Positions 2,209 through 37,949 of a stretch of DNA of 64,000 bases are shown here, piece after piece. The notes under the pieces are model-generated. The model was not told the DNA's origin. It saw only the letters and a program-made list of their open reading frames with translations, and did no database searches. Every line of letters starts with the position of its first letter. Within the stretch, counting starts at the first letter, position 1. The position numbers were made by a program, and so were the translations under genes. This DNA comes from a virus, in IMG/VR virus record IMGVR_UViG_3300044712_002679, positions 244,406 through 308,405 of that record. The stretch is one strand, 5' to 3'.

Positions 2209-2210
2209 TT

Positions 2211-3128
2211 ATGATAACATCTATATTGCATCATGGATTAGGTAATAGATTATATCAAATAATCTATACTATTGAATTAGCTAAAAAATATAATATGAAT
2301 TATTTTTTTAGTGATTATTATACAGATAATATAGAACATAAATTTAATATTCATTATAAAGATAATATTTTTAAAAAATTGTCATTTAATTATGTAGATA
2401 AAATACCATATTTAGATAATAAATATATTTTTGATAAACATAAATTAAAACAAATTAAATCAGACTTTAAACTTAAAAAAGAAAAATTGATAAATATTGA
2501 AGATATTTTTAATTTACTAAATGATAATAATACAGTATTGAATAATGATGAAACATATGTTTTAAATTTTCCACACGACAACCCAAAATCATATTATATT
2601 GAATCTAAATATGTTGATAGATATTTTTATAACGATTTATTTATTGATAAACAAATATTAAATGATATAAAAATAAAATATAACAACAATTTTAAAAATT
2701 CTATATGTATATTAGTTAGAAGAAATGATTATTGTACAAATGAAGATTTGAAACCTAGAGTTAAAGATATACTATATTATTATAAAGGAATAAAAGAAAT
2801 AGAAAAAGAAAAACAAATTGATTATATTTATATCATATCAGATGATTTTAATTGGTGTAAAAAAAATTTAATAGATTCAAGAATAATTTATGTTGATGAT
2901 GTTGATTATAATCAATTTTATTTAGCAACATTATGTGAAAATTTTATAACTGTTGATTCAACATTTATATTTTGGCCAATTGTATTAAGTTTGAATGATA
3001 ATATAATTGTAGTAAGTGAAAAAGATTCTATACATTTTAGCTATAAAGATAAAAGTTGGAATAATGATCTAGTATGGTTTACAGATATTAAATCATTTAA
3101 AAATATATCAAAACATATAACAATATGA
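2211..3128 (+). CDS. GT11-like alpha-1,2-fucosyltransferase
   Basis: N-terminal 'HHGLGNRLYQIIYTIELAKKYN' matches fucosyltransferase motif I (G-L-G-N-Q/R-x-F/Y-Q). The start overlaps the upstream stop. Confidence 0.5.
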   Translation: MITSILHHGLGNRLYQIIYTIELAKKYNMNYFFSDYYTDNIEHKFNIHYKDNIFKKLSFNYVDKIPYLDNKYIFDKHKLKQIKSDFKLKKEKLINIEDIFNLLNDNNTVLNNDETYVLNFPHDNPKSYYIESKYVDRYFYNDLFIDKQILNDIKIKYNNNFKNSICILVRRNDYCTNEDLKPRVKDILYYYKGIKEIEKEKQIDYIYIISDDFNWCKKNLIDSRIIYVDDVDYNQFYLATLCENFITVDSTFIFWPIVLSLNDNIIVVSEKDSIHFSYKDKSWNNDLVWFTDIKSFKNISKHITI

Positions 3129-4168
3129 AAATAATAATAATTACTGGATCATTTGGATTAATTGGCAGTGAAGCTGTCAGTTTTTTTTCAAAAAAATTTG
3201 ATATTGTAATAGGTATTGATAACAATATGCGTGAATATTTCTTTGGAAAAGATGCTTCAGTTTTAAAAAATGAAAAATTATTGAAAGAAAAATATAATAA
3301 TTATATACATTTTAATACTGACATTAGAAATAAAATTGAATTAGAAAAAATATTTAAAGAATATAATACTGATATTAAATTGATAATACATACAGCAGCA
3401 CAACCATCGCATGATTGGGCTGTTAAAGAACCATTCACTGATTTTTCAATCAATGCAATAGGAACATTAAATTTATTAGAATTAACTAGACAATATTGTA
3501 CAAAATCTGTTTTTATTTATACTTCAACTAATAAAGTTTATGGTGATAATCCAAATTATTTACCATTAGTAGAATTACAAAATCGTTGGGAAATTGATTC
3601 AAAACATAAGTATAGTTTAAATGGTATTGACGAAACAATGTCAATAGATTATACAAAACATTCGTTGTTTGGTGTTTCTAAATTATCCGCAGATTTATTA
3701 TGCCAAGAATATGGTAAATATTTTAATATGAATGTTGGAATTTTTAGATGTGGTTGTTTAACTGGTGAAAATCATCAAGGTGTCCAATTACACGGATTTA
3801 TATCTTATTTTTTAAAATGTGCAATAAACAATCAAAAATATAATATTTATGGTTATAAAGGTAAACAAGTTAGAGACAATATACATAGTTTTGATTTAAT
3901 AACAGCATTTTGGCATTTTTATAATAATCCATTACTTGGTGAAGTTTTTAATATGGGTGGTGGTAGAAATAATAGTACATCAATATTAGAACTTATCGAA
4001 ATATTAAAAAATGATTTTAATATTAATATGAATTTTAATTATGTTGATATACCTAGAATTGGTGATCATATTTGGTATATTTCAGATTTTAATAAATTTC
4101 AATCAATTTATCCAAATTGGAAACTTACATATAATTTAAAAGATATTATAAAAAATATGATTAAATAA
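3125..4168 (+). CDS. NAD-dependent sugar epimerase/dehydratase (extended SDR)
   Basis: 'IITGSFGLIGSEAV' is a Rossmann GxxGxxG motif. 'YGVSKLSAD' is the YxxxK catalytic motif. Size is typical of GalE or CDP-sugar epimerases. Confidence 0.7.
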   Translation: MKIIIITGSFGLIGSEAVSFFSKKFDIVIGIDNNMREYFFGKDASVLKNEKLLKEKYNNYIHFNTDIRNKIELEKIFKEYNTDIKLIIHTAAQPSHDWAVKEPFTDFSINAIGTLNLLELTRQYCTKSVFIYTSTNKVYGDNPNYLPLVELQNRWEIDSKHKYSLNGIDETMSIDYTKHSLFGVSKLSADLLCQEYGKYFNMNVGIFRCGCLTGENHQGVQLHGFISYFLKCAINNQKYNIYGYKGKQVRDNIHSFDLITAFWHFYNNPLLGEVFNMGGGRNNSTSILELIEILKNDFNINMNFNYVDIPRIGDHIWYISDFNKFQSIYPNWKLTYNLKDIIKNMIK

Positions 4169-5774
4169 TATCTTTATCACGTTTTGCTAATATTGGATAT
4201 TTATCAAGTAATTTCCAGTCTTCGTTCCAAGTTTCCAAATAAGATAATGTTTTAATATTATTTAATTTGCAAATTATACTAAATATTGATTGTGATCTAT
4301 TTTCAATAAATCCAATTAAATTTGGTGATATTGAAGGACTATCATCTGAAAGTGAAAAATTATTATAATAAGAATTTAACCACTGTGTTATTATATTTAT
4401 AGATTTATTACATTTTTTTATAAAAATTATACCCGAACCAATTTGACTTGTTTCTATTATTTCTTTATTATGTCTTACATTAAAATAATCTAAAACATCA
4501 CCCTTTGCCCATTCACATTCAAGAAAATGATGCACATCATACAACGATTTTCCTTGAAAAGCTAATATATCATTTTTATTCGCAATATCAAAATATTCCA
4601 ATAATCTATTATATCCATTTTTATTAATATGACATCCAACATCTGAATATAGTAGAATATCATTATTATTCATTTTATCTAATTCTTGTAATATAATTTG
4701 AGGTTTCCAACACCAATAACCAAATCCACGACTACCATAAATAAGATTATTTTTGAAACGATTAACAAAATCTTTATTTAAATCTTTTTCGTTGTAAATA
4801 GAAATAACATCATAATTCATTTCTTTGGCTTGTCGTTCAATTCTATCTAGGCTATTTTGCATTCTCGAATCAGCAAATGATAAAAATATTTTTTTTTGAT
4901 GAATAAATTGTGTCTTATTAACAATTTTAAATTTTTGTAATATATTTTTTAAATATTTTCTAATGAATAAATCATCAAAAATATTTGACCAATATTGTTT
5001 TGCTTGGCAATTTTTATCCAATATCCATTTACTTTCGTTTTCATAATATGAAAAACATATAAAAATTTTATTGGGATTTTCCATATTTTCTTTAATATGT
5101 GTAAAACAAAACGGACCAGAAGCTCTACCTATAATGACATCAACTTTTGTTGATAAATATGAAATTTCTAATAAATTATTTGAATAATTTAAAATATTAT
5201 TAACTGTTATGATATTGGATTTTTGCAAAAAACTATCATTTGTCATAATAAAAGTTATATTAGGATATATATTTGATAGATAATCTATTATTGGATCAAA
5301 ATCAAAATTTTCGGATTGTCCTGACCATACTGAATTATTACAAACCAACACATATCTTTTATTTGATTGAATAAAATTATCAATATTTTTAGTTTCTATT
5401 TTTTGAAAATCAACAGTTGGTATATAAAATTCCATCGGATTTATACTAATATTTAATTGATTATAAATATCACAAAATAATATATAATTTGACTTTAAAC
5501 TACATCCATATGTTAAATATTTAAAATTTTGTTGTCCTATCCACGTATTAATATACAAATCATCACCGATTTGTATTACAGATGTATCATTATGGGGTGT
5601 ATATTTTCGAATCTGATCGACATCAACATCTTTTAATATAGAAAAATCATTATTATGACAATAATAATGATTAATTCCAAGTTTATTTTTTATGTCTTTT
5701 ATAAATTCTTTTGAATAAAAAACATCACCATTGTGATAATTGTTAAAAAAATATACATTTGATGGTTTATTCAT
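4161..5774 (-). CDS. Two-domain protein. The N-terminal about 280 aa are paralogous to ORF 30463-31308. The C-terminal domain carries a W-x-W/DxD-like sugar-transferase-like signature.
   Basis: N-termini are near-identical ('YFFNNYHNGDVFYSKEFIKDIK...VIQIGDDLYINTW'). The C-terminus has 'SRGFGYWCWKPQI...ILLYSDVGCH'. Confidence 0.35.
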   Translation of the reverse strand: MNKPSNVYFFNNYHNGDVFYSKEFIKDIKNKLGINHYYCHNNDFSILKDVDVDQIRKYTPHNDTSVIQIGDDLYINTWIGQQNFKYLTYGCSLKSNYILFCDIYNQLNISINPMEFYIPTVDFQKIETKNIDNFIQSNKRYVLVCNNSVWSGQSENFDFDPIIDYLSNIYPNITFIMTNDSFLQKSNIITVNNILNYSNNLLEISYLSTKVDVIIGRASGPFCFTHIKENMENPNKIFICFSYYENESKWILDKNCQAKQYWSNIFDDLFIRKYLKNILQKFKIVNKTQFIHQKKIFLSFADSRMQNSLDRIERQAKEMNYDVISIYNEKDLNKDFVNRFKNNLIYGSRGFGYWCWKPQIILQELDKMNNNDILLYSDVGCHINKNGYNRLLEYFDIANKNDILAFQGKSLYDVHHFLECEWAKGDVLDYFNVRHNKEIIETSQIGSGIIFIKKCNKSINIITQWLNSYYNNFSLSDDSPSISPNLIGFIENRSQSIFSIICKLNNIKTLSYLETWNEDWKLLDKYPILAKRDKDII

Positions 5775-11536: not shown

Positions 11537-11539
11537 TTT

Positions 11540-11567
11540 AAAATGGGGAATAATTATTCCCCATTTT
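11540..11567. terminator. perfect 14-bp palindrome AAAATGGGGAATAA/TTATTCCCCATTTT between convergent genes
   Basis: Sits exactly between the stop of 10703-11536 (+) and the stop of 11572-12843 (-). Likely a bidirectional 3'-end signal. Confidence 0.55.
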
Positions 11568-11571
11568 AATT

Positions 11572-19183: not shown

Positions 19184-19228
19184 AAAAAACTCATATTATT
19201 TTTTTTATATATAATTAAAAAAAATAAT

Positions 19229-20275
19229 ATGAAAAAATGTTTTTTATGTAATAAAGATTTGAAACAAAGTGAAAGTTCGCATATGAAAAAATGTGCAAAA
19301 AGTTTTAATATTGAATTTAATAAAGATTTATTAAAATATAATCAAATTCAATTTGAATATTTGGACATTTTAGATTGTTCATCTGATAATATTAACAAAT
19401 TAATAAATGAAAATGGATTAGTTTTAACTGATTTTATAAAAATATATAATTTAAAAAAATCACATTATTATTTTTTGATAAAATATCATAATATAAATAT
19501 AGATGAAAAAAAATATAAAAAAAATGTTACCGAAAATCGTAAAAAAACTACATTTGAAAAATATGGTGTTGATTCTATTAATAATGTGTTAGAAATTAAA
19601 CTTAAAAAAATGAAAACCAGTATTAAAAATTATGGTGTTGATAATCCATCAAAAAATATTGATGTGATAAATAAAATAAAAAAAACTAAAATAGATAAAT
19701 ATGATGGTTATCCAAATCCATTTAAAAATAAATCTGAAGATGAAATAAAGAAAATAATGAATTTTTGTCATCAAGGATTTAAAAATATGTATAATAATTT
19801 ATCTGAACAAGATAAGAAAATAATGATTGATAATTTACATATTGGTAGAAAAAAATGGTGGAATTCGTTATCGGAAGATGAAAAACATCAAATAATAAAT
19901 AATAGAACAAGTTTTAAGATGTCTAAAATAGAAAAAAGAATACTTGATATTTTAGACTATATGCAAATAAAATATATTTATCAATTTTGGGTTAATCGTT
20001 TATCATATGATTTTAAAATATTAAATACAAATGTCATAATTGAAGTAAATGGTGATTATTGGCACGCAAATCCCATACTATATCATAAAGATCAAATTAT
20101 TAAGTATCCTAATAATGTAAAAATAACAGCATCAGAAATATGGTATAAAGATTTTTTAAAAAAAGAAGTAGCATTAAAATATGGTTATAAGATATTATAT
20201 ATTTGGGAAAATGATATGAAAACATATTCAGATGTCGATTTAATTAATATTATTAATAATCAATTAATTCTTTGA
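19229..20275 (+). CDS. Zn-finger protein with a C-terminal Vsr-like / DUF559-type PD-(D/E)xK endonuclease domain
   Basis: The start is reassigned to 19229, because the 19052 start overlaps the divergent gene. 'EVNGDYWHANP...ALKYGYKILYIWEND' parallels Vsr 'VDGCFWH...GWRVLIVWE'. The N-terminus has 'CFLCNKD...HMKKC'. Confidence 0.5.
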   Translation: MKKCFLCNKDLKQSESSHMKKCAKSFNIEFNKDLLKYNQIQFEYLDILDCSSDNINKLINENGLVLTDFIKIYNLKKSHYYFLIKYHNINIDEKKYKKNVTENRKKTTFEKYGVDSINNVLEIKLKKMKTSIKNYGVDNPSKNIDVINKIKKTKIDKYDGYPNPFKNKSEDEIKKIMNFCHQGFKNMYNNLSEQDKKIMIDNLHIGRKKWWNSLSEDEKHQIINNRTSFKMSKIEKRILDILDYMQIKYIYQFWVNRLSYDFKILNTNVIIEVNGDYWHANPILYHKDQIIKYPNNVKITASEIWYKDFLKKEVALKYGYKILYIWENDMKTYSDVDLINIINNQLIL

Positions 20276-22888: not shown

Positions 22889-23246
22889 TTATTATATCCA
22901 TTATTTTTTTATAAATGTCTGAGCTATTATAAATAGAATCACTACTAAATGATCCATATTTCTTTTGATTATATGATTTTTTCAAATCTAACCAACATTC
23001 TTTTATATTAATTATACCATTAAGTAAAACAGATATTGGAAACATTATTGTATTTAATATTATCGCTAATGGATTATAAAAATTATGAAGTATAATTTGT
23101 TTATCATTATAATAATATTCATATCTATCAATCCATTTTATTTGTCTATGTTTAAATAATTGATTATGTACTTTTTTGGATAATTTGAATTTTTTATATC
23201 CATTATCCAAAGGGTTTTTATAAATATATTCAGTTTTAATCATCAT
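22863..23246 (-). CDS. hypothetical membrane-associated protein
   Basis: ORF with an internal hydrophobic segment. Confidence 0.3.
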   Translation of the reverse strand: MMIKTEYIYKNPLDNGYKKFKLSKKVHNQLFKHRQIKWIDRYEYYYNDKQIILHNFYNPLAIILNTIMFPISVLLNGIINIKECWLDLKKSYNQKKYGSFSSDSIYNSSDIYKKIMDIINEKRLERK

Positions 23247-23650
23247 AATAATTTTAAATGTCCTGTTATGGGGTTTATTTCTTCGGATTTAGCTGGACCG
23301 ATAGCAACACAAGTTTTTGTTGGTACACCATTAAATTCAGTTAATCCGGCATCGACAATCAATGAACAAGGCAAACCTTTATCTTTTGCTTGTTGATATA
23401 TATCCAATAGTTCTTGTTCACTATCACAACTAACAACAACCTTAGTAAATAACCCCCTTAACCATACTGACCAATTAGAATCATCATCTAAATAAAAAGT
23501 AAGATGACCTTCACTTGATGATATTCTTTGATATTCACACAAATCTAAAAATACTTTCATTGAGGCGTGGGCCGCCTGAGACATCGCCTTACCCTTACGA
23601 ACATTTAAGTCTTTTCGGAATATTATAACTTGTTTTACATTTTCATTCAT
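23243..23650 (-). CDS. pth2: peptidyl-tRNA hydrolase, PTH2 (archaeal/eukaryotic) type
   Basis: 'KQVIIFRKDLNVRKGKAMSQAAHAS...VAIGPA' aligns well with the Pth2 family. Size is 135 aa. Confidence 0.8.
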   Translation of the reverse strand: MNENVKQVIIFRKDLNVRKGKAMSQAAHASMKVFLDLCEYQRISSSEGHLTFYLDDDSNWSVWLRGLFTKVVVSCDSEQELLDIYQQAKDKGLPCSLIVDAGLTEFNGVPTKTCVAIGPAKSEEINPITGHLKLL

Positions 23651-24701: not shown

Positions 24702-24965
24702 TCATACATTTATATTATTTTTATGAAATATTTGATCAAAATTCAAATATTTATTTGCAGATATTATAAGATCATCTTTTAACATATTTTTTATATTATT
24801 TATATCAATAAATCTATTTTCTTTATCATATAAATATGTATTATAAAATGGTTTATTATCAATAATTGTCGAATATCTTATCATCGTTTTTGAACAATAT
24901 GGTGAATAATATTGTGTAATTTCATCATATTGAATTTCTGGGTATCTTTTTAAAATACCTATCAT
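24702..24965 (-). CDS. hypothetical protein
   Basis: ORF whose start overlaps the gmd stop (ATGA). Followed by a further ATGA-coupled 48-aa ORF at 24563-24705. Confidence 0.3.
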   Translation of the reverse strand: MIGILKRYPEIQYDEITQYYSPYCSKTMIRYSTIIDNKPFYNTYLYDKENRFIDINNIKNMLKDDLIISANKYLNFDQIFHKNNINV

Positions 24966-25993
24966 TAAGTTCCAATTAAACTTTTTCCACCAGTTTTTAA
25001 ATCGTGTTCCATCATAATCTTAACCAATTCTTTAAACTTCACCTTTGGTTCCCATCCTAAAATTGTACGAGCTTTTGTTGAATCACCAAGTAACAGATCT
25101 ACTTCAGATGGTCTAAAATATTTTGGATCAATTTCAATTACAACATTACCTGTATTCTTATCTATACCTTTTTCATCTACCCCACTTCCAACCCATTCGA
25201 TATCCATGTTAACATATTTACAAGCTTCTTCGATGAAATCTTTGACACTATACATTATCCCAGTAGAAAGTACAAAATCTTCTGGGGTGTCTTGTTGTAA
25301 CATTAACCACATACCATACACATAATCGGGAGAATATCCCCAATCTCTTTTTGAATATAAATTGCCTAATTTTAAAGTTTTTTGTTTTCCGTTTTTTATT
25401 TTTACTAATGCTTCAGTTACTTTCTTTGAAACAAAAGTAGACCCCCGACGTTCTGATTCATGATTAAACAATATTCCATTACTTATAAACATATCATATG
25501 ATTCTCTATAATTTTTACAAATATGGTAGGCGTAAAGTTTTGCCACACCATAAGGAGACTGTGGGTTAAATTGTGTTTTTTCAGTTTGTGGTATTTCTAA
25601 AACCTTTCCATATAATTCACTCGTACTAGCATTATAAATTTTAGATTTTAATTCCAATAAACGACAACTTTCGAGTACATTTAGGACACCTATTGCATCA
25701 ACTTGTGCAGTATATAATGGTTGTGTAAATGACACTTGAACGTGACTTTGTGCAGACAGAATATATATTTCATCAGGTTTAACTTTTAATAATATATTTT
25801 GAATAGACGATATATCAGTGATATCACCATAATATAAATGTATTTTATCATAAATATTTTCAAGTCTACCAGTGTTAAATGAACTACTTCTTCTAATCAT
25901 CCCATGTACATCATAATCTTTATCTAACAGTAATTCAGCAAGATAACTTCCATCTTGACCTGTAATTCCTAACAATAATGCTTTTTTCTTCAT
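24965..25993 (-). CDS. gmd: GDP-mannose 4,6-dehydratase
   Basis: '[42 protein letters not shown]' is nearly diagnostic for GMD. Full length is 342 aa. Confidence 0.9.
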
Positions 25994-26054
25994 TTATTAT
26001 AATTATTTTTTAATCCGATAAAATCATTTTTTATAAGATTTCTACTTATTAAGA

Positions 26055-26705
26055 TTAATATCCCTGATATAATTTCACGGAATCTTCGACCAAACTTTTA
26101 CCATCAATAATAGATTTGTCTATCATTCTGTTAATTGCTTGCACGTATTTCGGTCTTTTTTGTTTAAAACAAATATCTATTTTACGTTTTAGTGATGCTA
26201 ATTCTTCATCAGATGTTGCTAATCCACATGCATCCTCCAAATACCACATACGGCAATTTAATATTGCTAATTTTTCTATAACTTCACCAATATTATCAGT
26301 TTCAATTATATCATTTGGCATTTCTATATATTTAGATTTATTTAAAATGTTGTGAACTGTAGTTTTAATTATATCTTCAATTTTTTCACCAATATTTAAT
26401 TCATTATTTAAATATTGATGATAATCTTGTTCACCACCATCACCAACAATATTTTCAAATGATATAACATCTTTATCATCATATTCATAATCATTGAACC
26501 AATCACCAACAGAATCTTCTATATGTTTACAAAAATCGCCTACTGAATCATCATTATTTTCTTTTGGATTCGAATTATATTCATAATCATTGAACCAATC
26601 AAAATCTTCTTCCACCATACCAATATTTACGTTTCCGATTTTATAATTTATGTTCCAATTGCCACTTTCTCTGACACCACAATGTCCATTAATTTGATTT
26701 TCCAT
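26055..26705 (-). CDS. hypothetical protein with an internal 'DWFNDYEY' duplication
   Basis: ORF with a repeated acidic segment. Confidence 0.3.
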   Translation of the reverse strand: MENQINGHCGVRESGNWNINYKIGNVNIGMVEEDFDWFNDYEYNSNPKENNDDSVGDFCKHIEDSVGDWFNDYEYDDKDVISFENIVGDGGEQDYHQYLNNELNIGEKIEDIIKTTVHNILNKSKYIEMPNDIIETDNIGEVIEKLAILNCRMWYLEDACGLATSDEELASLKRKIDICFKQKRPKYVQAINRMIDKSIIDGKSLVEDSVKLYQGY

Positions 26706-26719
26706 ATTATTCTTTTTTG

Positions 26720-26977
26720 TTAATATCCTTGTATTTTTTCGATAAGATTTAAAATTGAATACAATTGAACATCTATATCATCTAAATTATGATATTCAGA
26801 TTGTCTTTGAATAGAAATATCTTGTATACAATCTGTTACTTTACTATGAATTATCGCTAATAATCCTGACAAATTATATATATCATCATCTTTACCAAAG
26901 ATAATATCATCAAAATTTAGTTCAGTATTTATTTTAACTTTTGCTTTCATAGCCTTTTTCATTATATAGTTGTTCAA
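26720..26977 (-). CDS. hypothetical small protein
   Basis: ORF only. Confidence 0.25.
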   Translation of the reverse strand: MNNYIMKKAMKAKVKINTELNFDDIIFGKDDDIYNLSGLLAIIHSKVTDCIQDISIQRQSEYHNLDDIDVQLYSILNLIEKIQGY

Positions 26978-27362
26978 ATATTAATTGTTTAAATTTAGTT
27001 GAACTCCAACCATGATTTCTATTTATATAAATTATTTTAATATTTAGATCACCACCATTAATTTCTTTACCAATATAATCATCACCTAAAAATCTAACAT
27101 TAGGCTTAATTTTTTTTAATAATTTATATAGTTCTTTTTCAGTAGTATAACAAACAATTTCATCAATATACTTTATAGATTCCAATATTTTTATTCTTTC
27201 ATCAACAGATAATATTGGTTTGATTTTTTCTGGTCTATCAATAGTTGGATCTGTTTGCAAAAGAACAATCAATTTATCACAATTATTTTTAGCTTCTTCA
27301 AACATATAAATATAACCTGGATGAATTATGTCGAAGCAACCAGCAAGAATACCCATTTTCAT
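26934..27362 (-). CDS. cytidylyltransferase-fold nucleotidyltransferase, HldE domain II / RfaE2-like heptose-1-phosphate adenylyltransferase
   Basis: 'GILAGCFDIIHPGYIYMFEEAK...LIVLLQTD...VDERIKILESIKYIDEIV' matches the HIGH-motif pattern (G.FD..H.GH) and layout of the HldC/HldE C-terminal domain. Confidence 0.6.
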   Translation of the reverse strand: MKMGILAGCFDIIHPGYIYMFEEAKNNCDKLIVLLQTDPTIDRPEKIKPILSVDERIKILESIKYIDEIVCYTTEKELYKLLKKIKPNVRFLGDDYIGKEINGGDLNIKIIYINRNHGWSSTKFKQLIFEQLYNEKGYESKS

Positions 27363-27371
27363 ATGGTTTAT

Positions 27372-27632
27372 TTATTTTTTAACGTTAACCACATAATAAA
27401 GATGATCATATTGTGGGATATCTACTAATTTACTAGTTGTTTCAATACACTCTTCGATAAGGCAATGAAATCCACTTCCACCATTATCATATTCGACAAA
27501 AACATTATGTAAGTCATCACAATCTTTTACTATTCCAACATTACCATCATTATCCGTAATACGCATACCAATAACCAAATCACTATGGCTAACAATTTCA
27601 GATTGTTTATCTTTTTTTTCTTTATTTTTCAT
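27372..27632 (-). CDS. hypothetical small protein
   Basis: ORF only. Confidence 0.25.
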   Translation of the reverse strand: MKNKEKKDKQSEIVSHSDLVIGMRITDNDGNVGIVKDCDDLHNVFVEYDNGGSGFHCLIEECIETTSKLVDIPQYDHLYYVVNVKK

Positions 27633-27862
27633 TATTTAAATCTTTGTTTAATCTCTACGAAATCCAGCATCATAACCTTCATTAAAAATAAAGCTATGTA
27701 AATATGGCATACCCCAATTTATTTTTAATCCAAAAATGAACAAATCAATACAATTTGCACCCCTAAATTTTACAACTTTATACCAAGGAAAATATCCCTT
27801 TGATATTCTAAACCAAAATTTAAATTTATATTCTTTTTTCATATATCATTATTTATTTTTTA

Positions 27863-30457
27863 TTACATATTTTTATTTACGATATCACATATATACATAA
27901 TATCCATACCTGTTAAATCTGGGTTATTAGGTACATATAGACCATACTTATCTACAATATCAGCAAAATCAAATGATTGTTTACCATATTTTTTTATCCA
28001 ATATGGTTGGTTTCCAATTGATCCACAGACTAATGGTCTACAATCAACACCACCATCATCTAATGCTTTTGCAATTTGTTTAATATTCGGATGAATTATA
28101 GGATATGCAAAATTTGCGATTTTACAATGTTCAAAATCTTTAATCTTCCAATAATCATTTTTGATAAATTCTTGATATAATTCATAATTCCATTGTCTAA
28201 ATATACAATTTTTTTCAATTCTGTCCAATTGATGTATTCCAATAAATGCTTGCAAATCAGTTGATCTTAAATTGAATCCTGGATAATAAAATGTATATAA
28301 ATCTTTAAAGTCATCAACATCAAATCCTTCTTTTAATTTTGATTTAAAAGGTTCATCTAAATCACGATCCCAACCATGTGCTCTTATACTTTTAAGAATA
28401 CAATACAAATCATAATCATCAGTACAGACCATCCCACCTTCTATTGTTGAATTATGTAAACATATAGGTTGCCAACCACCAACAAAATTTTCTGTATTTG
28501 GAACACAAAAATCATAAACATATTCATCATTACTATTTATTGTTTCTTTTGATCTAACACACAATAACATTAAATCATTATCGACGAATTTTTTTAATTT
28601 ATCATTATTTAAATATTCAGACTTAAACAATTTAATAAAATCACAACATTTATATGATACGTTATTTTTATTTCTTTTGGAAAATCTTTCAATTTTAAAT
28701 GTTAATTTTTTGTATGGTAATGTATTTTTTATATCAGAAACGATTATTGAATTATCTGATATTTCTACATTAGATATAATGAATTTATATTGTATTTTAT
28801 TATTTGTTTTTCTACCACATATCATTCTATTATTTTCTTTAGATTCAATAATAGAACCATTTAATCCTAACATATTAAATAAATATGAAATTTCATTTAT
28901 TAAATTTTTTGATACACTTGATACCGAAATTCTATTATCATCTACATTTGTGCCATCGCCAGCAAAATAACCATATAAAAATGATGATATATTTTCGTAA
29001 TTTGAATGAAATATAAATTTTGGTATTTGTTTATTTGATGCTCCAGATTTTATATTCAAAAAATCTCTAAAAAATATTAATAAAGTTTCAGATGATATGC
29101 AAATTGCATGGCTATGTTTATCTTCAACAATATCATCATATGATTCTAAATTAAATATTTTTTTTATAATATTTTTTACATCCTTAATATATTCAATTTC
29201 ATTTATATTAAATGAAAAACATAATCCACTTTTTTTGTATGATCCTTCGGCTAAAAAATAACCAATCAATCGACATAAATCTTCTGAAACTTCATATTTA
29301 ATTGGAATATATTTATATTTAGGTGTGTTTTTTTTAGCAATTTTTAAATTATCAGTTTCTGTTATCAAATATTCCAAGGGTAAAACCTTTCTTCTTTTCC
29401 AATTATCTTTGTTTTTATTATCTTTACTATTCCATTTGAACTTTATTTTATCTAAATCAGATTCGTTATGGTTTATTGTAAAATATGTATTTTCAGTTTT
29501 TTTACAAAAATCTAAAAAATTTAATTCTGTTATGGGGTTTGGTTGTGGAATTTTAGATGGTACTACAATATAATCACCAATATTAATATCATTTCCTTTT
29601 TTTGGTATAATGTTAAAATTTTTTGGATCATAAGAAAAAACACTATGATCTTCGGTAATTTCAACATATCTACCATTTGATAATTTTATTTTAAAAACTA
29701 TTTTGTTGTTTAGTTCGTGTTTTATTATATTTGAAGGTGATTTATATTGTGTATTATAATCATCATCGAATGTTATTATTTTTATTTTATTTACATCATA
29801 TTGATATTTATTATAGATATTTTTAATATTATCTATATTAAAAATATCATTTTCATCTAAATATGGTATTGGTGTATTAGATGACACTGACATATGATGA
29901 CCATAATAAAAGGAAAAAGAACTCATTAGACCAAATGATCCTGTTTTAATATCATTATAAAAAGAACCAATACTTTCACATGAATCTTCTAATAAAATAA
30001 TGTTATTTTGTTCACATATTTCTAAAATTTCTTTCATTTTATTAGGAAATCCTAATACGTGAACTAACATTATAACAGAAGGTTTGTGTTCTTTCACAAG
30101 TTTTTTTAGGTGATCAATATCTAATCCTAATGTTTCTTTATCACATTCACAAAGAATTGGATTAAGCCCCAATTGAATAATTGGTGAAACTGTTGTAGTC
30201 CATGACACCGCAGGAACGATTATATTTTTATTTATTAGTCTATCAGACATCAATAAACTATAAATCATTGCTAGATTTGCAGATGAACCAGAATTAAGAA
30301 AAACTGAATATTTTTTATTTTGATATTTAGAATATTTTTCTTCAAATTCTACAGTAAGCTTATTTTTAGTTAAAATAGGATTCGTTTTTAACCATTCTAT
30401 TAAAAGGTTTATATCATTTGCGTCAATTGTGTCTTTAACTAATTTAATTCGTTCCAT
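27863..30457 (-). CDS. DegT/ColD-type PLP-dependent sugar 3-dehydratase/aminotransferase, interrupted by an intein that encodes a LAGLIDADG homing endonuclease
   Basis: N-extein has the DegT fold ('...GSFGLMSSFSFYYGHHM'). C-extein is 'STIEGGMVCTDD...RAHGWDRD...GFNLRSTDLQAFIGIHQL'. The intein has block B 'EITEDHSVFS', two LAGLIDADG motifs ('LIGYFLAEGSY', 'LYGYFAGDGTN'), block G 'VYDFCVPNTENFVGGWQPICLHN' and Ser at +1. The conserved PLP lysine position reads His (verified on the DNA), as in ColD and E1 dehydratases. Confidence 0.75.
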   Translation of the reverse strand: MERIKLVKDTIDANDINLLIEWLKTNPILTKNKLTVEFEEKYSKYQNKKYSVFLNSGSSANLAMIYSLLMSDRLINKNIIVPAVSWTTTVSPIIQLGLNPILCECDKETLGLDIDHLKKLVKEHKPSVIMLVHVLGFPNKMKEILEICEQNNIILLEDSCESIGSFYNDIKTGSFGLMSSFSFYYGHHMSVSSNTPIPYLDENDIFNIDNIKNIYNKYQYDVNKIKIITFDDDYNTQYKSPSNIIKHELNNKIVFKIKLSNGRYVEITEDHSVFSYDPKNFNIIPKKGNDINIGDYIVVPSKIPQPNPITELNFLDFCKKTENTYFTINHNESDLDKIKFKWNSKDNKNKDNWKRRKVLPLEYLITETDNLKIAKKNTPKYKYIPIKYEVSEDLCRLIGYFLAEGSYKKSGLCFSFNINEIEYIKDVKNIIKKIFNLESYDDIVEDKHSHAICISSETLLIFFRDFLNIKSGASNKQIPKFIFHSNYENISSFLYGYFAGDGTNVDDNRISVSSVSKNLINEISYLFNMLGLNGSIIESKENNRMICGRKTNNKIQYKFIISNVEISDNSIIVSDIKNTLPYKKLTFKIERFSKRNKNNVSYKCCDFIKLFKSEYLNNDKLKKFVDNDLMLLCVRSKETINSNDEYVYDFCVPNTENFVGGWQPICLHNSTIEGGMVCTDDYDLYCILKSIRAHGWDRDLDEPFKSKLKEGFDVDDFKDLYTFYYPGFNLRSTDLQAFIGIHQLDRIEKNCIFRQWNYELYQEFIKNDYWKIKDFEHCKIANFAYPIIHPNIKQIAKALDDGGVDCRPLVCGSIGNQPYWIKKYGKQSFDFADIVDKYGLYVPNNPDLTGMDIMYICDIVNKNM

Positions 30458-30462
30458 TTATA

Positions 30463-31308
30463 TTATATTGTTTTTAAAATATTATTAATATTGTTTATAA
30501 TACTATTATTTTCGAATACATTATACCAATATTGCTTTGCTTGACAATTATTATCAGCTATATATTTACTTTCACGTTCCTTATATGAAAAACCAATTAA
30601 TATTTTATTTTCATTTTCCATATTATCACTGATGTGTGTAAAACAAAATGGACCAGATGCTCTACCAATAATAACATCAGTTTTTGTTGATATATAAGAA
30701 ATTTCCAATAAATTTTTGTTAAATCCCAAAATATTATCAACATTAATAATATTATCTTTTATTAAAAAAATATCATTTGTCATAATAAAAATAATATTCG
30801 GATATATATTTGATAAATTGTCTATTATTGGATAAAAATTAAAATTTTCGGATTGACCTGACCACACATTATTATTACAAACTAATACATATTTTTTATT
30901 TGGTTGAATAAAATTGTCAATATTTTGTGTTTCCACTTTTTCAAAATCAACTTTTGGAATATAATATTTAATCGGATTTATTTTAAGATTAAGTTGATCA
31001 TAAATATCACAAAAAACATTATAATTTGCATTTAAATTACAACCAGTTTCATTTAAATATTTGGCTTGTTGTTGACCAACCCATGTATTAATATACAAAT
31101 CATCACCAATCTGTATTACAGATACATCATTTTTTGGTGTTGGTTTTCTAATTTGTTCAATATCAATATCTTTTAATATAGAAAAATCATTACTGTGAAT
31201 ATAGTAATGATTTTTACCAATTTTACTTTTTATATCTTTGATAAATTCTTTTGAATAAAAAACATCACCGTTGTGATAATTGTTAAAAAAATAAACATTT
31301 TCAATCAT
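30463..31308 (-). CDS. paralogue of the N-terminal domain of 4161-5774
   Basis: 'MIENVYFFNNYHNGDVFYSKEFIKDIKSK...VIQIGDDLYINTWVGQQ' is about 70% identical over 280 aa. Confidence 0.45.
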   Translation of the reverse strand: MIENVYFFNNYHNGDVFYSKEFIKDIKSKIGKNHYYIHSNDFSILKDIDIEQIRKPTPKNDVSVIQIGDDLYINTWVGQQQAKYLNETGCNLNANYNVFCDIYDQLNLKINPIKYYIPKVDFEKVETQNIDNFIQPNKKYVLVCNNNVWSGQSENFNFYPIIDNLSNIYPNIIFIMTNDIFLIKDNIINVDNILGFNKNLLEISYISTKTDVIIGRASGPFCFTHISDNMENENKILIGFSYKERESKYIADNNCQAKQYWYNVFENNSIINNINNILKTI

Positions 31309-31322
31309 ATACTTTTGTTAAT

Positions 31323-31658
31323 TTACATCTTATTAAGTTGGTCAATTCTTACTTTAATATCATTATCATAACTATAAAAATAAAAACCATCTTCATTTTC
31401 ATAACAATATTTCCAAGTATTTTTAGTATTATCCCACTCAATAAATATAATTTTGGTATCTAAATTTTTAGATATTACTGTTATATTTTGACCCAATGTA
31501 AATTTTGGTTTTAATTTATTATAATCATTTATAAGTTCTTCTATTGCTTCCGGTGTAAATATTAAATCAATATTATTATCACATTGAATCATAAAATTAC
31601 ATCCAATTTTACACATTTTTACATCTTCTTTTTCTACATTAATTAAAATACGTGCCAT
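31323..31658 (-). CDS. hypothetical protein
   Basis: ORF only. Confidence 0.3.
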   Translation of the reverse strand: MARILINVEKEDVKMCKIGCNFMIQCDNNIDLIFTPEAIEELINDYNKLKPKFTLGQNITVISKNLDTKIIFIEWDNTKNTWKYCYENEDGFYFYSYDNDIKVRIDQLNKM

Positions 31659-31717
31659 AATTATTATTTTTATTTCATTTAAATACTAGAATATATATTT
31701 AACATTTATGATTTTGT

Positions 31718-32563
31718 TTAAAATAACATTGGTTTTATATTAGATATTTTTAATAATTCCATAGTTGTATCATTAAATAAGTCTTCATATAAAATTTTTC
31801 TAGATTTTAAATAAAATATTTTTTCGTTTGATGTTATATTTTCCGATATATCTTCGGTTACATAATCTTCATATTTTAAATTAAAATGTGAATATAAACT
31901 TCTGATAAAATCATTTACAAATATCAATCGACCTGATCCAATAATTTCATCTTGTCTAGCTTTTATAGATTGTTCAACGACAAATTTTGGATGTAATAGT
32001 TCTCTATAAAAATATGTATTACCAATTGTAATTTGTTTTTGATTTATAATCGAATCAAAAATTTTAGAAAATAAAAAACCATCTTTTCGATATATTGAAT
32101 TAAAATTAAATGGATGTAGAACTATTACATTATTATATATTCTATGGATATCTGATATCAACATATCTTTTGATTCTACATAATTTGAAAGTTTATAATT
32201 GAATGGCGTATAAATATTTATTGGACCATCACAATTATTCCACAATTCACTAGTACCATATATTATAACATTATTAGATATTGGACTAAAATAATCAATA
32301 ACTTTAAGTGTATAATCGACATTAGTTTTAAAAAATATTTCCCAATTATCTGTTATATAAGTTCGTTGTTCAGCAAAACAAATATAAACACGATTATAAT
32401 GTTTTTTATATTTTTCAAAATCTATATTTCGTGATGATATTTTTTCATAGTCATCAGGAAAATAGTGTGCCAATTGTGATGTGTTTCCAATTACTAGATT
32501 CATTTTAATTTGTTTATTTCCTTTATTTTTTCTGATCTTAGTTTCCTCGATAAAAATGGACAA
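31718..32563 (-). CDS. RmlD-like 4-keto-6-deoxy-sugar reductase (divergent SDR)
   Basis: 'LVIGNTSQLAHYF' vs RmlD 'TGANGQLG'. 'SNYVESKDM' is YxxxK. Size is about 280 aa. Likely start at the internal 'MNLVIG'. Confidence 0.3.
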   Translation of the reverse strand: MSIFIEETKIRKNKGNKQIKMNLVIGNTSQLAHYFPDDYEKISSRNIDFEKYKKHYNRVYICFAEQRTYITDNWEIFFKTNVDYTLKVIDYFSPISNNVIIYGTSELWNNCDGPINIYTPFNYKLSNYVESKDMLISDIHRIYNNVIVLHPFNFNSIYRKDGFLFSKIFDSIINQKQITIGNTYFYRELLHPKFVVEQSIKARQDEIIGSGRLIFVNDFIRSLYSHFNLKYEDYVTEDISENITSNEKIFYLKSRKILYEDLFNDTTMELLKISNIKPMLF

Positions 32564-32744: not shown

Positions 32745-33977
32745 TTATATTTTTTTTATTGTACTTAGAATTTCAAATGCTTTATCCGCAGCATTTTTCC
32801 AAGTAAATTCTTTTCTTATTATTTCAGAATCAATTAAAGCTTTACCTTTATATTTCCAATAATTTATATAAACATCTTTCATAACTTTAGATAAATCATC
32901 AAAATCTGGTTCATAATAATTTCCAACCATATTTGGTATTGGTTTTTCGCCAATTATTTTAACTGGATGTCCTTTACCTTGTGCAAATTCTAATTGCCCA
33001 CTACAATTTGAATAAATTGATGGTGTTCCACACGCCATAGATTCACAAAGTGGAAGTCCCCACCCTTCTGATCTTGAACAAGAAAGATATACATGACCAT
33101 TTTTTAAATAATTTATATAATCATCTTGACTTAAAAAATGTACAATTTTGATTCTATTATCATTAAACCCGAAATGCTTTAATCTATTTTCTGTTGTTAC
33201 TAATCCATCATTTAAAAATTCGTTGTCAACGGATATTATTAAATCAACTGGATCATCATTATTAAAAGTTTTTAAGAAAGTTTCAATAATTTCTTTAGTT
33301 GCTTTTCGATATTCCCATCGACCAAACATTATAAATTTAAATCTATTATCTTTATATGCATCTATATTGTAATTAAAATAAGATGGATTAAAAATAGTTT
33401 CATCAATAGCTTCAGGTACAACAAAAACCTTTTCGGGTGAATAACCTTGTTCTATTATACATTGTTTTTGCCATTCGGATGGACACCAAAATTGATCATA
33501 TTTTTTAAGTAATTCAAAAAAATTATGATCATATTTAGTTGATTCCCAAACATTATACGCTATTTTAATTCCTTTATATTTATCTAAACAATGATAATAA
33601 TGATGATTAGTTTCACTTAGTATAATATCAATTATGTCTTCTTGTTTATATTTATTCAAATATTCAAGACCATCATTAATTTCGCTATCGAAAATGTTAG
33701 CACCATATTTACATGGGTCATTTTCATCACAGTATAACGTTTGTTGACATATTAAATTTCTTTGATAATCTGTTAAATATTTTTCTCCTTTATGTGGATC
33801 ATTATATCGACCATTTGAATTTTTTTGTCCTAATCCGAACCAACTTTTTCCAACTGTAAAATTTTTAATTTTTAAATCTACTAATTGACTTAATGCTGTA
33901 AAAAAATTTCTAGCGTGGGCATTATATCCTGTATGTCCAATAAAACTTGTATGTCCTTTAATAAAAAAATCAGTCAT
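32745..33977 (-). CDS. GT4-family (GT-B) glycosyltransferase
   Basis: 'YLSCSRSEGWGLPLCESMACGTPSIYSN' matches the GT4 'E-G-F-G-L-P-x-L-E-A-M-A-C-G-T-P' motif. Confidence 0.8.
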   Translation of the reverse strand: MTDFFIKGHTSFIGHTGYNAHARNFFTALSQLVDLKIKNFTVGKSWFGLGQKNSNGRYNDPHKGEKYLTDYQRNLICQQTLYCDENDPCKYGANIFDSEINDGLEYLNKYKQEDIIDIILSETNHHYYHCLDKYKGIKIAYNVWESTKYDHNFFELLKKYDQFWCPSEWQKQCIIEQGYSPEKVFVVPEAIDETIFNPSYFNYNIDAYKDNRFKFIMFGRWEYRKATKEIIETFLKTFNNDDPVDLIISVDNEFLNDGLVTTENRLKHFGFNDNRIKIVHFLSQDDYINYLKNGHVYLSCSRSEGWGLPLCESMACGTPSIYSNCSGQLEFAQGKGHPVKIIGEKPIPNMVGNYYEPDFDDLSKVMKDVYINYWKYKGKALIDSEIIRKEFTWKNAADKAFEILSTIKKI

Positions 33978-35289: not shown

Positions 35290-35880
35290 TTGATGGAAAA
35301 ATTTACACAAATAAAAGATACACCAATCATACCAGAAGATGAAGTTCTATTTAATGGTAATCATCTTGATATTATTAAATATAAAGATACTGAAATTTTA
35401 CAAACAAAAGATAAAGTTGCAATTCTTCCATATTTTAGAGATGAAGCGACATTTTTAATGCGATTGGAATATACACCAGCTTATATGTATAAAAATCGTG
35501 GTACAAATCTTAGGAATATTACAAATTATTTAACTGTTATTACTGGTGGTATAGATGAAGGTGAAACCCCGGAACAAACGATTAGACGTGAATTATATGA
35601 AGAAGGTGGTATTGTATTAAATAGTATGTTTCAATTTGATGTTCAAGGTCCATATTTTACAGATAAATTTGGCACATCCCAAATTTGGATTTGTTTTTTA
35701 GAATTACCAGTAAACACTTATCGCCAAGTTAAACCACCTACTGATGGTTCTAAACATGAAGAATTATCAAAATGTATTAGGGTTTCTATTGGTGATATTA
35801 ACCAAATAGTTAATAACGATTTATTGAGTAAATATTTAATTGATAAATTAATCAATAGAATAGCACAAGGATCAAGATGA
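35290..35880 (+). CDS. Nudix hydrolase (ADP-ribose/NDP-sugar pyrophosphatase-like)
   Basis: Nudix box 'TGGIDEGETPEQTIRRELYEEGG'. Confidence 0.75.
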   Translation: MMEKFTQIKDTPIIPEDEVLFNGNHLDIIKYKDTEILQTKDKVAILPYFRDEATFLMRLEYTPAYMYKNRGTNLRNITNYLTVITGGIDEGETPEQTIRRELYEEGGIVLNSMFQFDVQGPYFTDKFGTSQIWICFLELPVNTYRQVKPPTDGSKHEELSKCIRVSIGDINQIVNNDLLSKYLIDKLINRIAQGSR

Positions 35881-37025: not shown

Positions 37026-37403
37026 ATGAAAAAAATATCTTTAATGCTTAAAACATTATGGTTAAATTCAAAAACGTGGTTTTTAAATTCAAAATATCAT
37101 GAAGAAATGATAGCAATACCAATTCTTATATTTTTGTTTTATTTATGTAATTATATTTTTACAGCAATGTTTCCAAATAGTGCATTTTTTGATTTCGCAT
37201 CCCAAATAGAAACCATTGTAAATAACATAGTTACGTTTATAATTGCAATAACTGTGGCAAATATTTCACTAAGAATTATATTTCCGAACATTTATAAATA
37301 TTTGAGAAATGAATTTTATAATTTTAATATTGAACAAAAATCAACATATGCAGTTGCTATTTTAATTGCATTCATAATTGCAGCAGCACTTATTTTTGGA
37401 TAA
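37026..37403 (+). CDS. membrane protein (3 TM)
   Basis: Hydrophobic segments only. Confidence 0.35.
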   Translation: MKKISLMLKTLWLNSKTWFLNSKYHEEMIAIPILIFLFYLCNYIFTAMFPNSAFFDFASQIETIVNNIVTFIIAITVANISLRIIFPNIYKYLRNEFYNFNIEQKSTYAVAILIAFIIAAALIFG

Positions 37404-37418
37404 AAAAATTTAATTCAA

Positions 37419-37949
37419 ATGAGAAAATTTATTATAGTTATTATATTTTTACTAATATATGCTGTTCAAGCTGCTAATATAAGCCATTCTGATAGCATTA
37501 GAATTGAATTGGTAGATTCTATCAGCAATCAATTAGATGTTAGGGAAACTTCTTATAATAGGGGTAAAATGGTTGATATTTATAATAAAGAAGTAGGTGT
37601 CCCATTAGGTTCTTCTTGGTGTGGGTCTTTTGTTGGTTCAAATTTAACTTGGCAAGGTGTTGAAAACCCAAATTCTGCATGGTCACCAAATTACGCTACA
37701 AAAGATATTATTTGGAAAGCAAAAAGAAAAAATAATATAACACCAAAATCTGGTGATGTTGTAACTTTCTATTATTCAAATCTTGGTCGTGTGGGACATA
37801 CAGGTTTTTATGTAAAAACAGATAATAATGGTTTTTTTATTACAATAGAAGGTAATACGAATAATGGTGGGTCACGTGAAGGTGATGGTGTATATAAGAA
37901 AAAACGTGATCCAAATAAAGTATACGCAATTAGTAGATATATTAAATAA
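37419..37949 (+). CDS. secreted CHAP-domain (Cys/His) amidase/peptidase
   Basis: Signal peptide 'MRKFIIVIIFLLIYAVQA'. 'GSSWCGSFV' is the catalytic Cys and 'GRVGHTGFYV' the catalytic His. Motif order and spacing are typical of CHAP/NlpC-P60. Confidence 0.55.
   Translation: MRKFIIVIIFLLIYAVQAANISHSDSIRIELVDSISNQLDVRETSYNRGKMVDIYNKEVGVPLGSSWCGSFVGSNLTWQGVENPNSAWSPNYATKDIIWKAKRKNNITPKSGDVVTFYYSNLGRVGHTGFYVKTDNNGFFITIEGNTNNGGSREGDGVYKKKRDPNKVYAISRYIK

Follow-up and report, generated by a model that had tools for sequence, protein, structure and literature searches.

Can a bacteriophage make a 3,6-dideoxy sugar of its own? The question is raised by a 64,000-nucleotide stretch of the IMG/VR virus record IMGVR_UViG_3300044712_002679 (positions 244,406 to 308,405; the whole stretch is called the window here). 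In it, genes for a GDP-mannose 4,6-dehydratase (GMD), a ColD-type 3-dehydratase, a short-chain dehydrogenase/reductase (SDR) and a GT4 glycosyltransferase form one tight co-directional block on the minus strand, at the positions given in a preliminary description made from the sequence alone. That description proposed a viral route to a colitose-like 3,6-dideoxy sugar. The chemistry up to the ColD product is upheld by the present analysis, while the names colitose and RmlD-like, and the capsid or fibers as the target, are too specific. The genome is that of a huge tailed bacteriophage, and a four-step pathway at the core of a glycan-biosynthesis island is judged the probable explanation of the locus as a whole, with considerable room for doubt.

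GMD and the intein-containing ColD gene

The first committed step is encoded by a typical GMD gene. The protein encoded at 24965..25993 (minus strand, 342 amino acids) scores 492.6 bits against TIGR01472 (gmd), for which the curated equivalog cutoff is 415, and it matches PF16363 with E=1.8e-134. The TSE (STSELYG) and YxxxK (YGVAK) motifs are present, and the preliminary identification of this gene is borne out. A set of 29 related loci (designated by L numbers) was compared by tblastn with the window proteins. Four of them were found via homologs of the compact 261-residue SDR (SDR261) and 21 via ColD in IMG/VR, and the others are one identical contig, two huge-phage genomes and one metagenome-assembled genome (MAG). 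In about 20 of the 29, the ColD gene has a GMD homolog no more than a few kb away. The pairing of GMD with a ColD-type enzyme is thus real, and it is backed by conserved synteny beyond adjacency in the window.

The ColD gene is interrupted by an intein, which the preliminary description overlooked. The open reading frame (ORF) at 27863..30457 (minus strand) encodes 864 amino acids; DegT-family enzymes are all less than half as long. PF01041 (DegT_DnrJ_EryC1; E=1.7e-54, 185.8 bits) matches it in two separate pieces, with matches to Intein_splicing, LAGLIDADG_3 and Hom_end between them. The odd length is explained by an inserted intein of 480 amino acids with a LAGLIDADG homing endonuclease (28451..29890, minus strand, residues 190-669; PF14890 E=6.4e-17, PF14528 E=3.8e-11, TIGR01445). 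The ORF is therefore a precursor, with the N-extein at nucleotides 29891-30457, the C-extein at 27866-28450 and the stop codon at 27863-27865. Spliced in silico, it gives a protein of 384 amino acids, and the junction SFYYGHHM/STIEGG (the slash marks the insertion site) is contiguous in an alignment with ten intein-free viral homologs and E. coli ColD.

The spliced protein is most similar to ColD, and the preliminary claim of a His-containing dehydratase stands. Its best match in the PDB is E. coli O55 ColD (2gms, E=5e-64, 220 bits). The first His of GHHM (residue 187, codon 29897-29899) aligns with ColD His188, which lies in the sequence SHHI and is the residue mutated in the H188K/H188N structures 2r0t and 3b8x. 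The motifs LLEDxCES, AHGWxRxL and PG(Y/F)N(V/L)R are common to the window protein, which has GWDRDL and PGFNLR, and to ColD. The conserved ColD residues within these aligned motifs are presumably D159, R219, N248 and R250 in the numbering of the Holden-lab structures. ColD Ser187 is replaced by Gly in all of the viral proteins aligned. On these search scores the spliced protein would be an ortholog of ColD, nearer to it than to E1 or to the aminotransferases.

The intein is of class 1 and sits in the active site. It is inserted two residues past the catalytic His (GHHM/S...HN/STIEGG). It begins with S190 (Ser1), has a block B with TEDH and two LAGLIDADG motifs (LIGYFLAEGS and LYGYFAGDGT), and ends in ICLHN669, followed by S670 (Ser+1). 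Exact excision restores GHHMSTIEGG, identical to the intein-free homologs, and the 480 inserted residues correspond to alignment columns that are empty in all ten of these viral proteins and in E. coli ColD. By an estimate made here, stop codons are about 9% of random codons at 24% GC, and an open insert of 480 codons is therefore not due to chance. All 21 IMG/VR homologs and the best 120 database matches lack an intein (about 383-407 amino acids, identities up to 91%), suggesting that the insertion is recent in the lineage of the window.

Related inteins are found in other sugar dehydratases. A HMMER search with the intein alone against 1.8 billion representative proteins gives seven close relatives (37-60% identity), which start at residues 190-218 of host proteins of 609-917 amino acids. 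Related inteins occupy the same site in other 3-dehydratases of 838-917 amino acids. Four relatives were inspected, among which P0350 and P0351 are ColD-type proteins with an identical junction. P0354 (917 amino acids) and P0355 (888 amino acids) are E1/RfbH-like 3-dehydratases, with a related intein at the corresponding place in the active site (SFYPAHHM/S...HN/STGEGG); P0355 has His-Gln in place of His-His. To judge from these proteins, the intein family crosses between ColD-type and E1-type enzymes. The shared junction points to a homing intein family specialized on the catalytic motif of sugar 3-dehydratases.

The window intein resembles other class 1 LAGLIDADG active-site inteins in Ser1, the block B TxxH, the terminal His-Asn, Ser+1, the two LAGLIDADG motifs and the choice of the most conserved active-site motif as target. 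It differs in its host protein, which is a sugar 3-dehydratase, while the classic hosts act in replication or nucleotide metabolism. It also differs in that a second intein is present in the GMD of a related phage. This GMD gene (L029, about 9915-12212) is on a 23.8%-GC contig binned as 'Cellvibrionaceae', and it is interrupted by a LAGLIDADG intein of about 400 amino acids in FNHE/SERRG. Residue 1 of that intein is apparently Thr, which is unusual. The window also has free-standing homing-endonuclease-like genes at 19052-20275 and 56374-57318 (both plus strand), with matches to phrog_3339 and to the HNH type and with a NUMOD1 domain. Together the inteins and free-standing endonuclease genes suggest heavy traffic of mobile endonucleases in this genome.

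SDR261, the conserved module and the proposed pathway

GMD and ColD belong to a module of five genes. GMD, ColD, SDR261, a GT9-like glycosyltransferase and a protein whose C-terminal part (about 115 amino acids) is DUF4254-like are found together in about 20 of the 29 loci. Gene order is shuffled between lineages while membership is kept, and ColD identities range from 53 to 84%. The GT9-like and DUF4254-like genes are conserved partners that were absent from the gene list of the preliminary description. SDR261 abuts ColD in most relatives and overlaps it in some, which suggests co-translation.

SDR261 is a compact member of the extended SDRs that is essentially virus-specific. The ORF on the minus strand extends from 31718 to a TTG at 32563. 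The start is most likely the ATG at 32503, giving 261 amino acids (31718..32503), since an independent gene call also has 261 amino acids and the 947 metagenome homologs have 255-273. About 90% of the query is covered by these homologs, a good number of which have a precomputed PF01370 match. The ORF itself has no match in Pfam, NCBIfam or, at E<=10, the PDB sequences. When 185,579 prokaryote species genomes were scanned by pattern, a single locus turned up, on the 23.8%-GC contig of the 'Cellvibrionaceae' MAG, which has the whole phage module and is probably a mis-binned phage.

The predicted structure confirms an SDR fold. In an alignment of 59 sequences, G6, S9, Q10, Y108, S111 and K112 are invariant, and Y82, E86 and L87 are kept in at least 90%. 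The AlphaFold2 model built on this alignment has a predicted local distance difference test score (pLDDT) of 91.7 and a predicted template modeling score (pTM) of 0.89. It has a Rossmann fold, a C-terminal substrate domain and the catalytic Ser/Thr, Tyr and Lys of an extended SDR. The top Foldseek matches are GDP-mannose 4,6-dehydratases (1n7h, E=3e-13), the Burkholderia 'putative epimerase' 4lw8 and the GDP-4-keto-6-deoxymannose reductases 2pk3 and 6x3b. The preliminary description called the product of 31718-32563 an RmlD-like reductase. The fold agrees with an SDR, but RmlD_sub_bind and TIGR01214 do not match, and RMD and GMD rank slightly above RmlD in the model comparison. The profile also places it outside the GMER family (ColC/Fcl), its best PDB match being an unrelated SDR with E=0.059.

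The active-site residues of SDR261 can be aligned with those of GMD. When the profile is compared with the window GMD, T84-S85-E86 corresponds to TSE, Y108 and K112 to the catalytic Tyr and Lys, and PFNFNSIYRK to FNHESERRG (E=0.0063, with a low probability and a single-sequence template). Glu86 thereby falls at the position of the base that acts on C5-H in GMD. This would be compatible with C5 epimerization, without demonstrating it. Like RMD of the GDP-D-rhamnose pathway and the GMD relatives, SDR261 would act on a GDP-linked 4-keto sugar. In contrast to them, it has no sequence-level family match (it is only 12-18% identical), it is about 40-80 residues shorter, its glycine motif is degenerate (GNTSQLA), and its putative substrate is a 3-deoxy derivative.

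These observations suggest a pathway of four steps. In the first, GMD would convert GDP-D-mannose by oxidation and dehydration to GDP-4-keto-6-deoxy-D-mannose, as its family does. In the second, the precursor would splice out the 480-residue intein to give the 384-residue ColD. Pyridoxamine 5'-phosphate (PMP) and the active-site His would then remove the 3-hydroxyl, yielding GDP-4-keto-3,6-dideoxy-D-mannose, and glutamate would regenerate the PMP. These two steps, with splicing as a prerequisite, are highly probable on the basis of family membership, active-site residues and conserved synteny. In the third step SDR261, with its GMD/RMD-like Thr-Ser-Glu and Tyr-x3-Lys, would reduce the 4-keto group with NAD(P)H. 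The product would be a GDP-3,6-dideoxyhexose, either L-colitose if C5 is inverted or a D-isomer such as tyvelose if it is not. Adjacency, fold and motifs make SDR261 a reasonable candidate for this 4-ketoreductase, and the assignment leans towards being correct. In the fourth step the GT9-like GT-B transferase would move the sugar, probably with the DUF4254-like protein. This last assignment is tentative and falls a little short of an even chance, its basis being co-conservation.

Destination and identity of the sugar

The two remaining module genes bear on where the sugar goes. The GT9-like protein (30463..31308, minus strand, 281 amino acids) is the candidate dideoxy-sugar transferase. It has a GT-B fold that is most like members of GT9, and its nearest structural relatives are the lipopolysaccharide (LPS) heptosyltransferases WaaC and WaaF. 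TibC, a GT9 enzyme that glycosylates protein, is also among its top structural matches. Pfam, including Glyco_transf_9, gives no match to this protein even at E<=1. The DUF4254-like protein (26055..26705, minus strand, 216 amino acids) matches PF14063 below threshold (E=0.017 in the window, 3.8e-5 in L001 and 5.4e-4 in L003). Its C-terminal domain of about 115 residues is 54-79% identical between related loci and always lies inside the module. A search of the literature on DUF4254 found nothing relevant. In a 400-kb relative (L003, 11927-13237 and 13305-13775) the GT9-like and DUF4254-like proteins are fused in a single ORF of 436 amino acids, as they are in L004, and a free-standing LAGLIDADG_2 endonuclease gene lies between the fusion and GMD. 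Such a fusion is an argument for joint action of the two proteins.

The acceptor may be virion proteins or host envelope glycans. The further transferases in the window that might take part (GT4, GT11, GT2-radical-SAM and a second GT9-like paralog) look soluble as the GT9-like protein does, and this fits cytoplasmic protein glycosylation and LPS-core-type transfer equally. It is a serious possibility, though one given distinctly less than an even chance, that the sugar remodels the envelope of the infected bacterium (LPS core, O-antigen or capsule) rather than the capsid or fibers, for example to exclude superinfection, a role that has been proposed for the LPS clusters of cyanophages. The resemblance to WaaC and WaaF favors this, and T4-like cyanophage relatives have similar clusters amid host-like genes. 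In addition, the only known occurrence of colitose and other 3,6-dideoxyhexoses is in LPS O-antigens (PMC8987622). However, polytopic membrane proteins of the Wzx, Wzy or WecA type are absent from the window, the match to TibC points to protein as an acceptor, and glycosylation of mycobacteriophage virions by phage-encoded glycosyltransferases is documented in work cited in PMC12619734.

A pathway peculiar to the huge phages would take the sugar to the virion. In this version the product of SDR261 lies outside the ColC route, being perhaps a D-configured sugar such as GDP-tyvelose or an isomer not seen before, and the GT9-like and DUF4254-like pair, a transferase of a new two-part kind, then attaches it to virion proteins. 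This full combination is unlikely, though not greatly so.

Several observations weigh against the four-step pathway as drawn. Four loci (L005, L007, L010 and L023) have both SDR261 and a gene of the GDP-fucose-synthase/ColC family, so that SDR261 is no mere substitute for ColC and may catalyze another step. The 735-kb genome LR756501 has SDR261 and the GT9-like gene with no ColD or GMD within 12 kb. A ColC/Fcl gene could also be present in the part of the 501-kb genome beyond the window. ADP-heptose is the usual donor of GT9 enzymes and a gene like RfaE domain II is nearby, so the GT9-like protein might use another donor. Finally, no ManB or ManC for the supply of GDP-mannose was seen among the ORFs scanned.

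The loci with Fcl-like genes raise the possibility of the canonical colitose pathway. The true 5-epimerase/4-reductase (ColC/Fcl) would then be encoded elsewhere in the genome or come from the host, and SDR261 would carry out another reaction, for a second sugar or for another C4/C2 isomer used by the GT9-like protein. In seven loci that lack SDR261 (L011, L012, L013, L019, L022, L024 and L025), the gene abutting ColD encodes a GDP-fucose-synthase-family enzyme, the family of ColC. Two of these genes match GMER strongly (L019, the E. coli enzyme with E=6.5e-94; L012, the human enzyme with E=4.7e-87). In Synechococcus phage ACG-2014f, which is cultivated, gp209-211 are GMD, a second gene annotated 'nucleotide-sugar epimerase' and then a DegT 'aminotransferase' with FGHHMTTIEGG. 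Phages thus carry what looks from gene content like a canonical Gmd-ColD-ColC colitose route. The four loci with both genes and the genome LR756501 also agree with a separate role for SDR261. Against this, the 64-kb window has no Fcl-like gene, and in 14 other SDR261 loci none lies within 10 kb of ColD; moreover, SDR261 is directly adjacent to ColD or overlaps with it in many loci. SDR261 is therefore the sole candidate reductase beside ColD in the window. The canonical route is considered unlikely for this genome.

The two reductases do not simply replace each other. Strict mutual exclusion of SDR261 and Fcl/ColC-like genes, as in a clean non-orthologous displacement, is ruled out by the four loci with both. 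Where both occur, GDP-fucose may be what the Fcl-like gene makes, or else SDR261 may yield another stereoisomer. The huge-phage lineage of the window has an extra compact SDR, which in many genomes is the sole reductase near ColD.

A second sugar cluster gives mixed indications on the configuration of the product. It lies at 61-6738, about 20 kb from the ColD module, and begins with a fusion of GT2 and radical-SAM/SPASM domains (61-2208, plus strand, 715 amino acids). This is followed by a GT11-family glycosyltransferase (2211..3128, plus strand; PF01531 E=1.9e-15), which is about 22 kb from the module. GT11 is the fucosyl/colitosyl-transferase family, and its presence in the window favors the canonical colitose pathway. 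WbgN, the alpha-1,2-colitosyltransferase of E. coli O55, is presumably also a member of GT11. It is treated alongside the alpha-1,2-fucosyltransferases in PMC12723683. GT11-like genes are found 4-5 kb from ColD in L013, L019 and L025, which hints at an L-galacto donor (colitose or fucose), and the window GT11 is a possible second transferase for a GDP-sugar of L-galacto configuration. The next gene (3125..4168, plus strand, 347 amino acids) encodes an SDR like CDP-tyvelose 2-epimerase (E=5.6e-40 to PDB 9rl0 and 4.5e-39 to 1orr; the match that follows is at 4e-21). It hints instead at D-configured 3,6-dideoxyhexoses. It is not conserved beside ColD in the other loci, and a link between it and the ColD module is speculative.

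The second cluster also contains a duplicate of the GT9-like gene. A protein of 537 amino acids (4161..5774, minus strand), which has no match in Pfam, PHROG or NCBIfam, consists of an N-terminal GT9-like paralog of about 270 amino acids and a C-terminal domain of about 250. The paralog is 76% identical to the product of 30463-31308 in amino acids and 82% in nucleotides, which marks it as a recent intragenomic duplicate. The C-terminal domain has a weak match adjoining SDR261 in a 735-kb phage (L027, 10377-10976).

The pathway of CDP-abequose, paratose and tyvelose is a very improbable source of the dehydratase. The window protein would then be an E1 (RfbH)-type CDP-4-keto-6-deoxyglucose 3-dehydrase, and automatic annotation favors this. 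RfbH is the top NCBIfam model for the spliced protein, no ColD-specific model being among the matches, and the JGI names for homologs are 'CDP-6-deoxy-D-xylo-4-hexulose-3-dehydrase' and 'E1'. The window also has genes like cytidylyltransferase and CDP-tyvelose 2-epimerase. However, the RfbH score of 201.5 bits is far under the cutoff of 423, and E1 (3bcx, 2e-37, 132 bits) is 88 bits under ColD in the PDB search, so the JGI names are probably an artefact of the nearest model. ColD has no Fe-S cluster, unlike E1 and SpnQ, and its PMP is regenerated with glutamate (PMC8987622). The window protein has GWDRDLD, like GWTRNL of ColD, where the E1-like P0354 and P0355 have the CxC sequences GRDCYC and GRDCWC; a [2Fe-2S] motif is thus absent. 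No E3-type reductase was found among the neighboring ORFs scanned, the conserved neighbor is a GDP-mannose rather than a CDP-glucose dehydratase, and the cytidylyltransferase is of the TagD/RfaE type rather than the RfbF type. The Salmonella and Yersinia CDP-3,6-dideoxyhexose pathway (E1/RfbH and E3) does share with the window a DegT-family 3-dehydratase with a catalytic His, and its E1-like proteins host the same intein family at the same site, but the chemistry in the window is that of GDP-mannose.

It is equally improbable that the DegT protein is an ordinary sugar aminotransferase, such as a GDP-perosamine synthase making a 4-amino-4,6-dideoxy sugar. PF01041 is dominated by aminotransferases and GenBank labels the cyanophage homolog as one, but the window protein and every viral homolog aligned, including that of the cyanophage, have His for the catalytic Lys, the change that chiefly sets 3-dehydratases apart from aminotransferases (PMC8987622), and perosamine synthase (1.5e-33, 120 bits) is 100 bits below ColD, with aminotransferases at 1e-33 or weaker.

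The phage genome and the meaning of the module

The genes of the proposed pathway are carried by a huge tailed bacteriophage. The source contig is 501,337 bp, and GC content is about 24% across the whole window. A stretch of 18.9 kb that includes the intein is 100% identical to an independently assembled Logan contig (SRR26046407), showing that the region is not an assembly artefact. A CHAP endolysin (37419-37949, plus strand; phrog_9589 E=2e-12) is preceded immediately on its 5' side by a holin-like ORF of 125 amino acids with three hydrophobic segments, and the pair (37026-37949, plus strand) is a probable lysis cassette. One window protein matches phrog_2613 (1e-50) and the tail family phrog_14717 (5.6e-23). 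SDR261 has homologs (48% identity) in LR756501 and LR756503, 'uncultured phage' genomes of 735 kb, and ColD has one (39% identity) in LR756502, an 'uncultured phage' genome of 642 kb. An origin from a eukaryotic giant virus is ruled out by the lysis genes, the tail and other PHROG matches and these relatives. A tRNA scan of the window found none. The 'moraphage' of PMC12619734 are a separate lineage of at most 307 kb, described there without detail on sugar pathways.

The genes that flank the module are less conserved than its members. The preliminary description placed a GT4 glycosyltransferase downstream, and PF00534 (E=5.6e-14) supports this for the 410-residue product of 32745..33977 (minus strand), which also matches PF20706 (GT4-conflict, 28.2 bits, cutoff 26). 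Its homologs (70-75% identical) accompany the module in no more than the three nearest lineages, L001, L003/L004 and L006. The same is true of a NUDIX gene and a 266-residue ORF. The NUDIX gene (35290-35880) has weak, generic matches of the MutT/ADP-ribose type, and a role as GDP-mannose mannosyl hydrolase is unsupported. The cytidylyltransferase-like gene (26934..27362, minus strand, 142 amino acids) encodes an accessory nucleotidyltransferase of the TagD/RfaE-domain-II type (PF01467 E=3.8e-15; TIGR02199 E=3.3e-21). Its best PDB match is the glycerol-3-phosphate cytidylyltransferase 1coz (E=1.2e-12), and it is specific to the window, having been found in no other locus of the set of 29. An ORF of 85 amino acids at 26720-26977 has no similarity to the DUF4254-like protein, of which it was considered as a paralog.

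Other genes in and around the locus are varied. Between GT4 and SDR261, L001 (2917-6189) and L003 (6648-9908) have large proteins with CarboxypepD_reg and OMP beta-barrel domains, like SusC/TonB receptors, and the window has a CarboxypepD_reg-domain protein of 423 amino acids (11572-12843, minus strand). These proteins may point to a host in the Bacteroidota or to a structural role. A 135-residue ORF (23243-23650, minus strand) is a peptidyl-tRNA hydrolase (PTH2) by a precomputed Pfam match on the identical Logan contig, and a PTH2 gene is also near the module of L003. Two tandem C-5 cytosine DNA methyltransferases are encoded at 15362-16246 and 16246-17154 (plus strand; PF00145 E=2e-45 and 8e-41), and an ORF at 10703-11536 is weakly similar to GmrSD_N (E=2.3e-4). 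A protein of 813 amino acids (40166-42607, plus strand) has major-vault-protein domains (MVP_shoulder E=2.1e-26, Vault_3 E=9.8e-10, SPFH/Band 7) and no PHROG match. Host-like metabolic genes encode a cation-diffusion-facilitator transporter with six transmembrane segments (43121-43999, plus strand; PF01545 E=3e-43 and ZT_dimer) and a cysteine-dioxygenase-like protein (48618-49163, plus strand; phrog_4786 E=1.9e-24).

The module is a variant of a known pathway in an unexpected carrier, with several new candidate enzymes. Like the bacterial GDP-L-colitose pathway (Gmd, ColD, ColC and WbgN in E. coli O55, Yersinia pseudotuberculosis and Vibrio cholerae), it has GMD and a PMP-dependent ColD ortholog with His for Lys; the window has a GT11-family gene, and some phage loci have a GMER/ColC-family gene beside ColD. 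In contrast to the bacterial pathway, the window has SDR261 beside ColD and no ColC/GMER-family enzyme, its ColD has an active-site intein and Gly instead of Ser187 before the His, and the module adds the GT9-like and DUF4254-like genes. It is also encoded by a phage and not by an O-antigen cluster. Other viral sugar pathways (GMD/GMER of chloroviruses, viosamine and rhamnose of mimivirus, the clusters of cyanophages) resemble it in having a deoxy-sugar route that begins with GMD and is accompanied by the virus's own glycosyltransferases. Gp209-211 of the cyanophage ACG-2014f are likely a canonical version of the same pathway, to which the huge phages add SDR261, the GT9-like transferase, DUF4254 and the intein. 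The preliminary description set the locus beyond the viral GDP-fucose, rhamnose and viosamine pathways. Since the genome is that of a huge tailed bacteriophage, comparison with chloroviruses and mimivirus is the wrong frame, and cyanophage GMD/Fcl/DegT clusters are already in GenBank under generic annotations.

As antigenic sugars of Gram-negative O-antigens, 3,6-dideoxyhexoses are standard textbook material, and within the literature searched they are unreported from viruses. The search found nothing relevant on colitose with giant viruses or phages, and a 2022 review of giant-virus glycans (PMC9614988) mentions neither a 3-dehydratase nor any 3,6-dideoxyhexose. Should the pathway peculiar to huge phages, with attachment to the virion, be real, no earlier virus would have been shown to have a dideoxyhexose glycan or ColD-type chemistry. 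The automatic names given to these dehydratases ('CDP ... E1' or 'aminotransferase') are widespread misannotations that this analysis corrects. The compact SDR and the GT9-like/DUF4254 pair are uncharacterized families for which there is now a testable biochemical hypothesis. An intein placed in the catalytic motif leaves sugar synthesis dependent on protein splicing, and together with the intein in the GMD of a relative it marks both genes as hot spots for homing endonucleases. The module is widespread and conserved in phages, with thousands of ColD-like and about 950 SDR261 homologs in metagenomes, on contigs of up to 770 kb. Overall it appears that huge phages make rare bacterial-type sugars themselves, which bears on the evasion of receptors or immunity or on the masking of virions.

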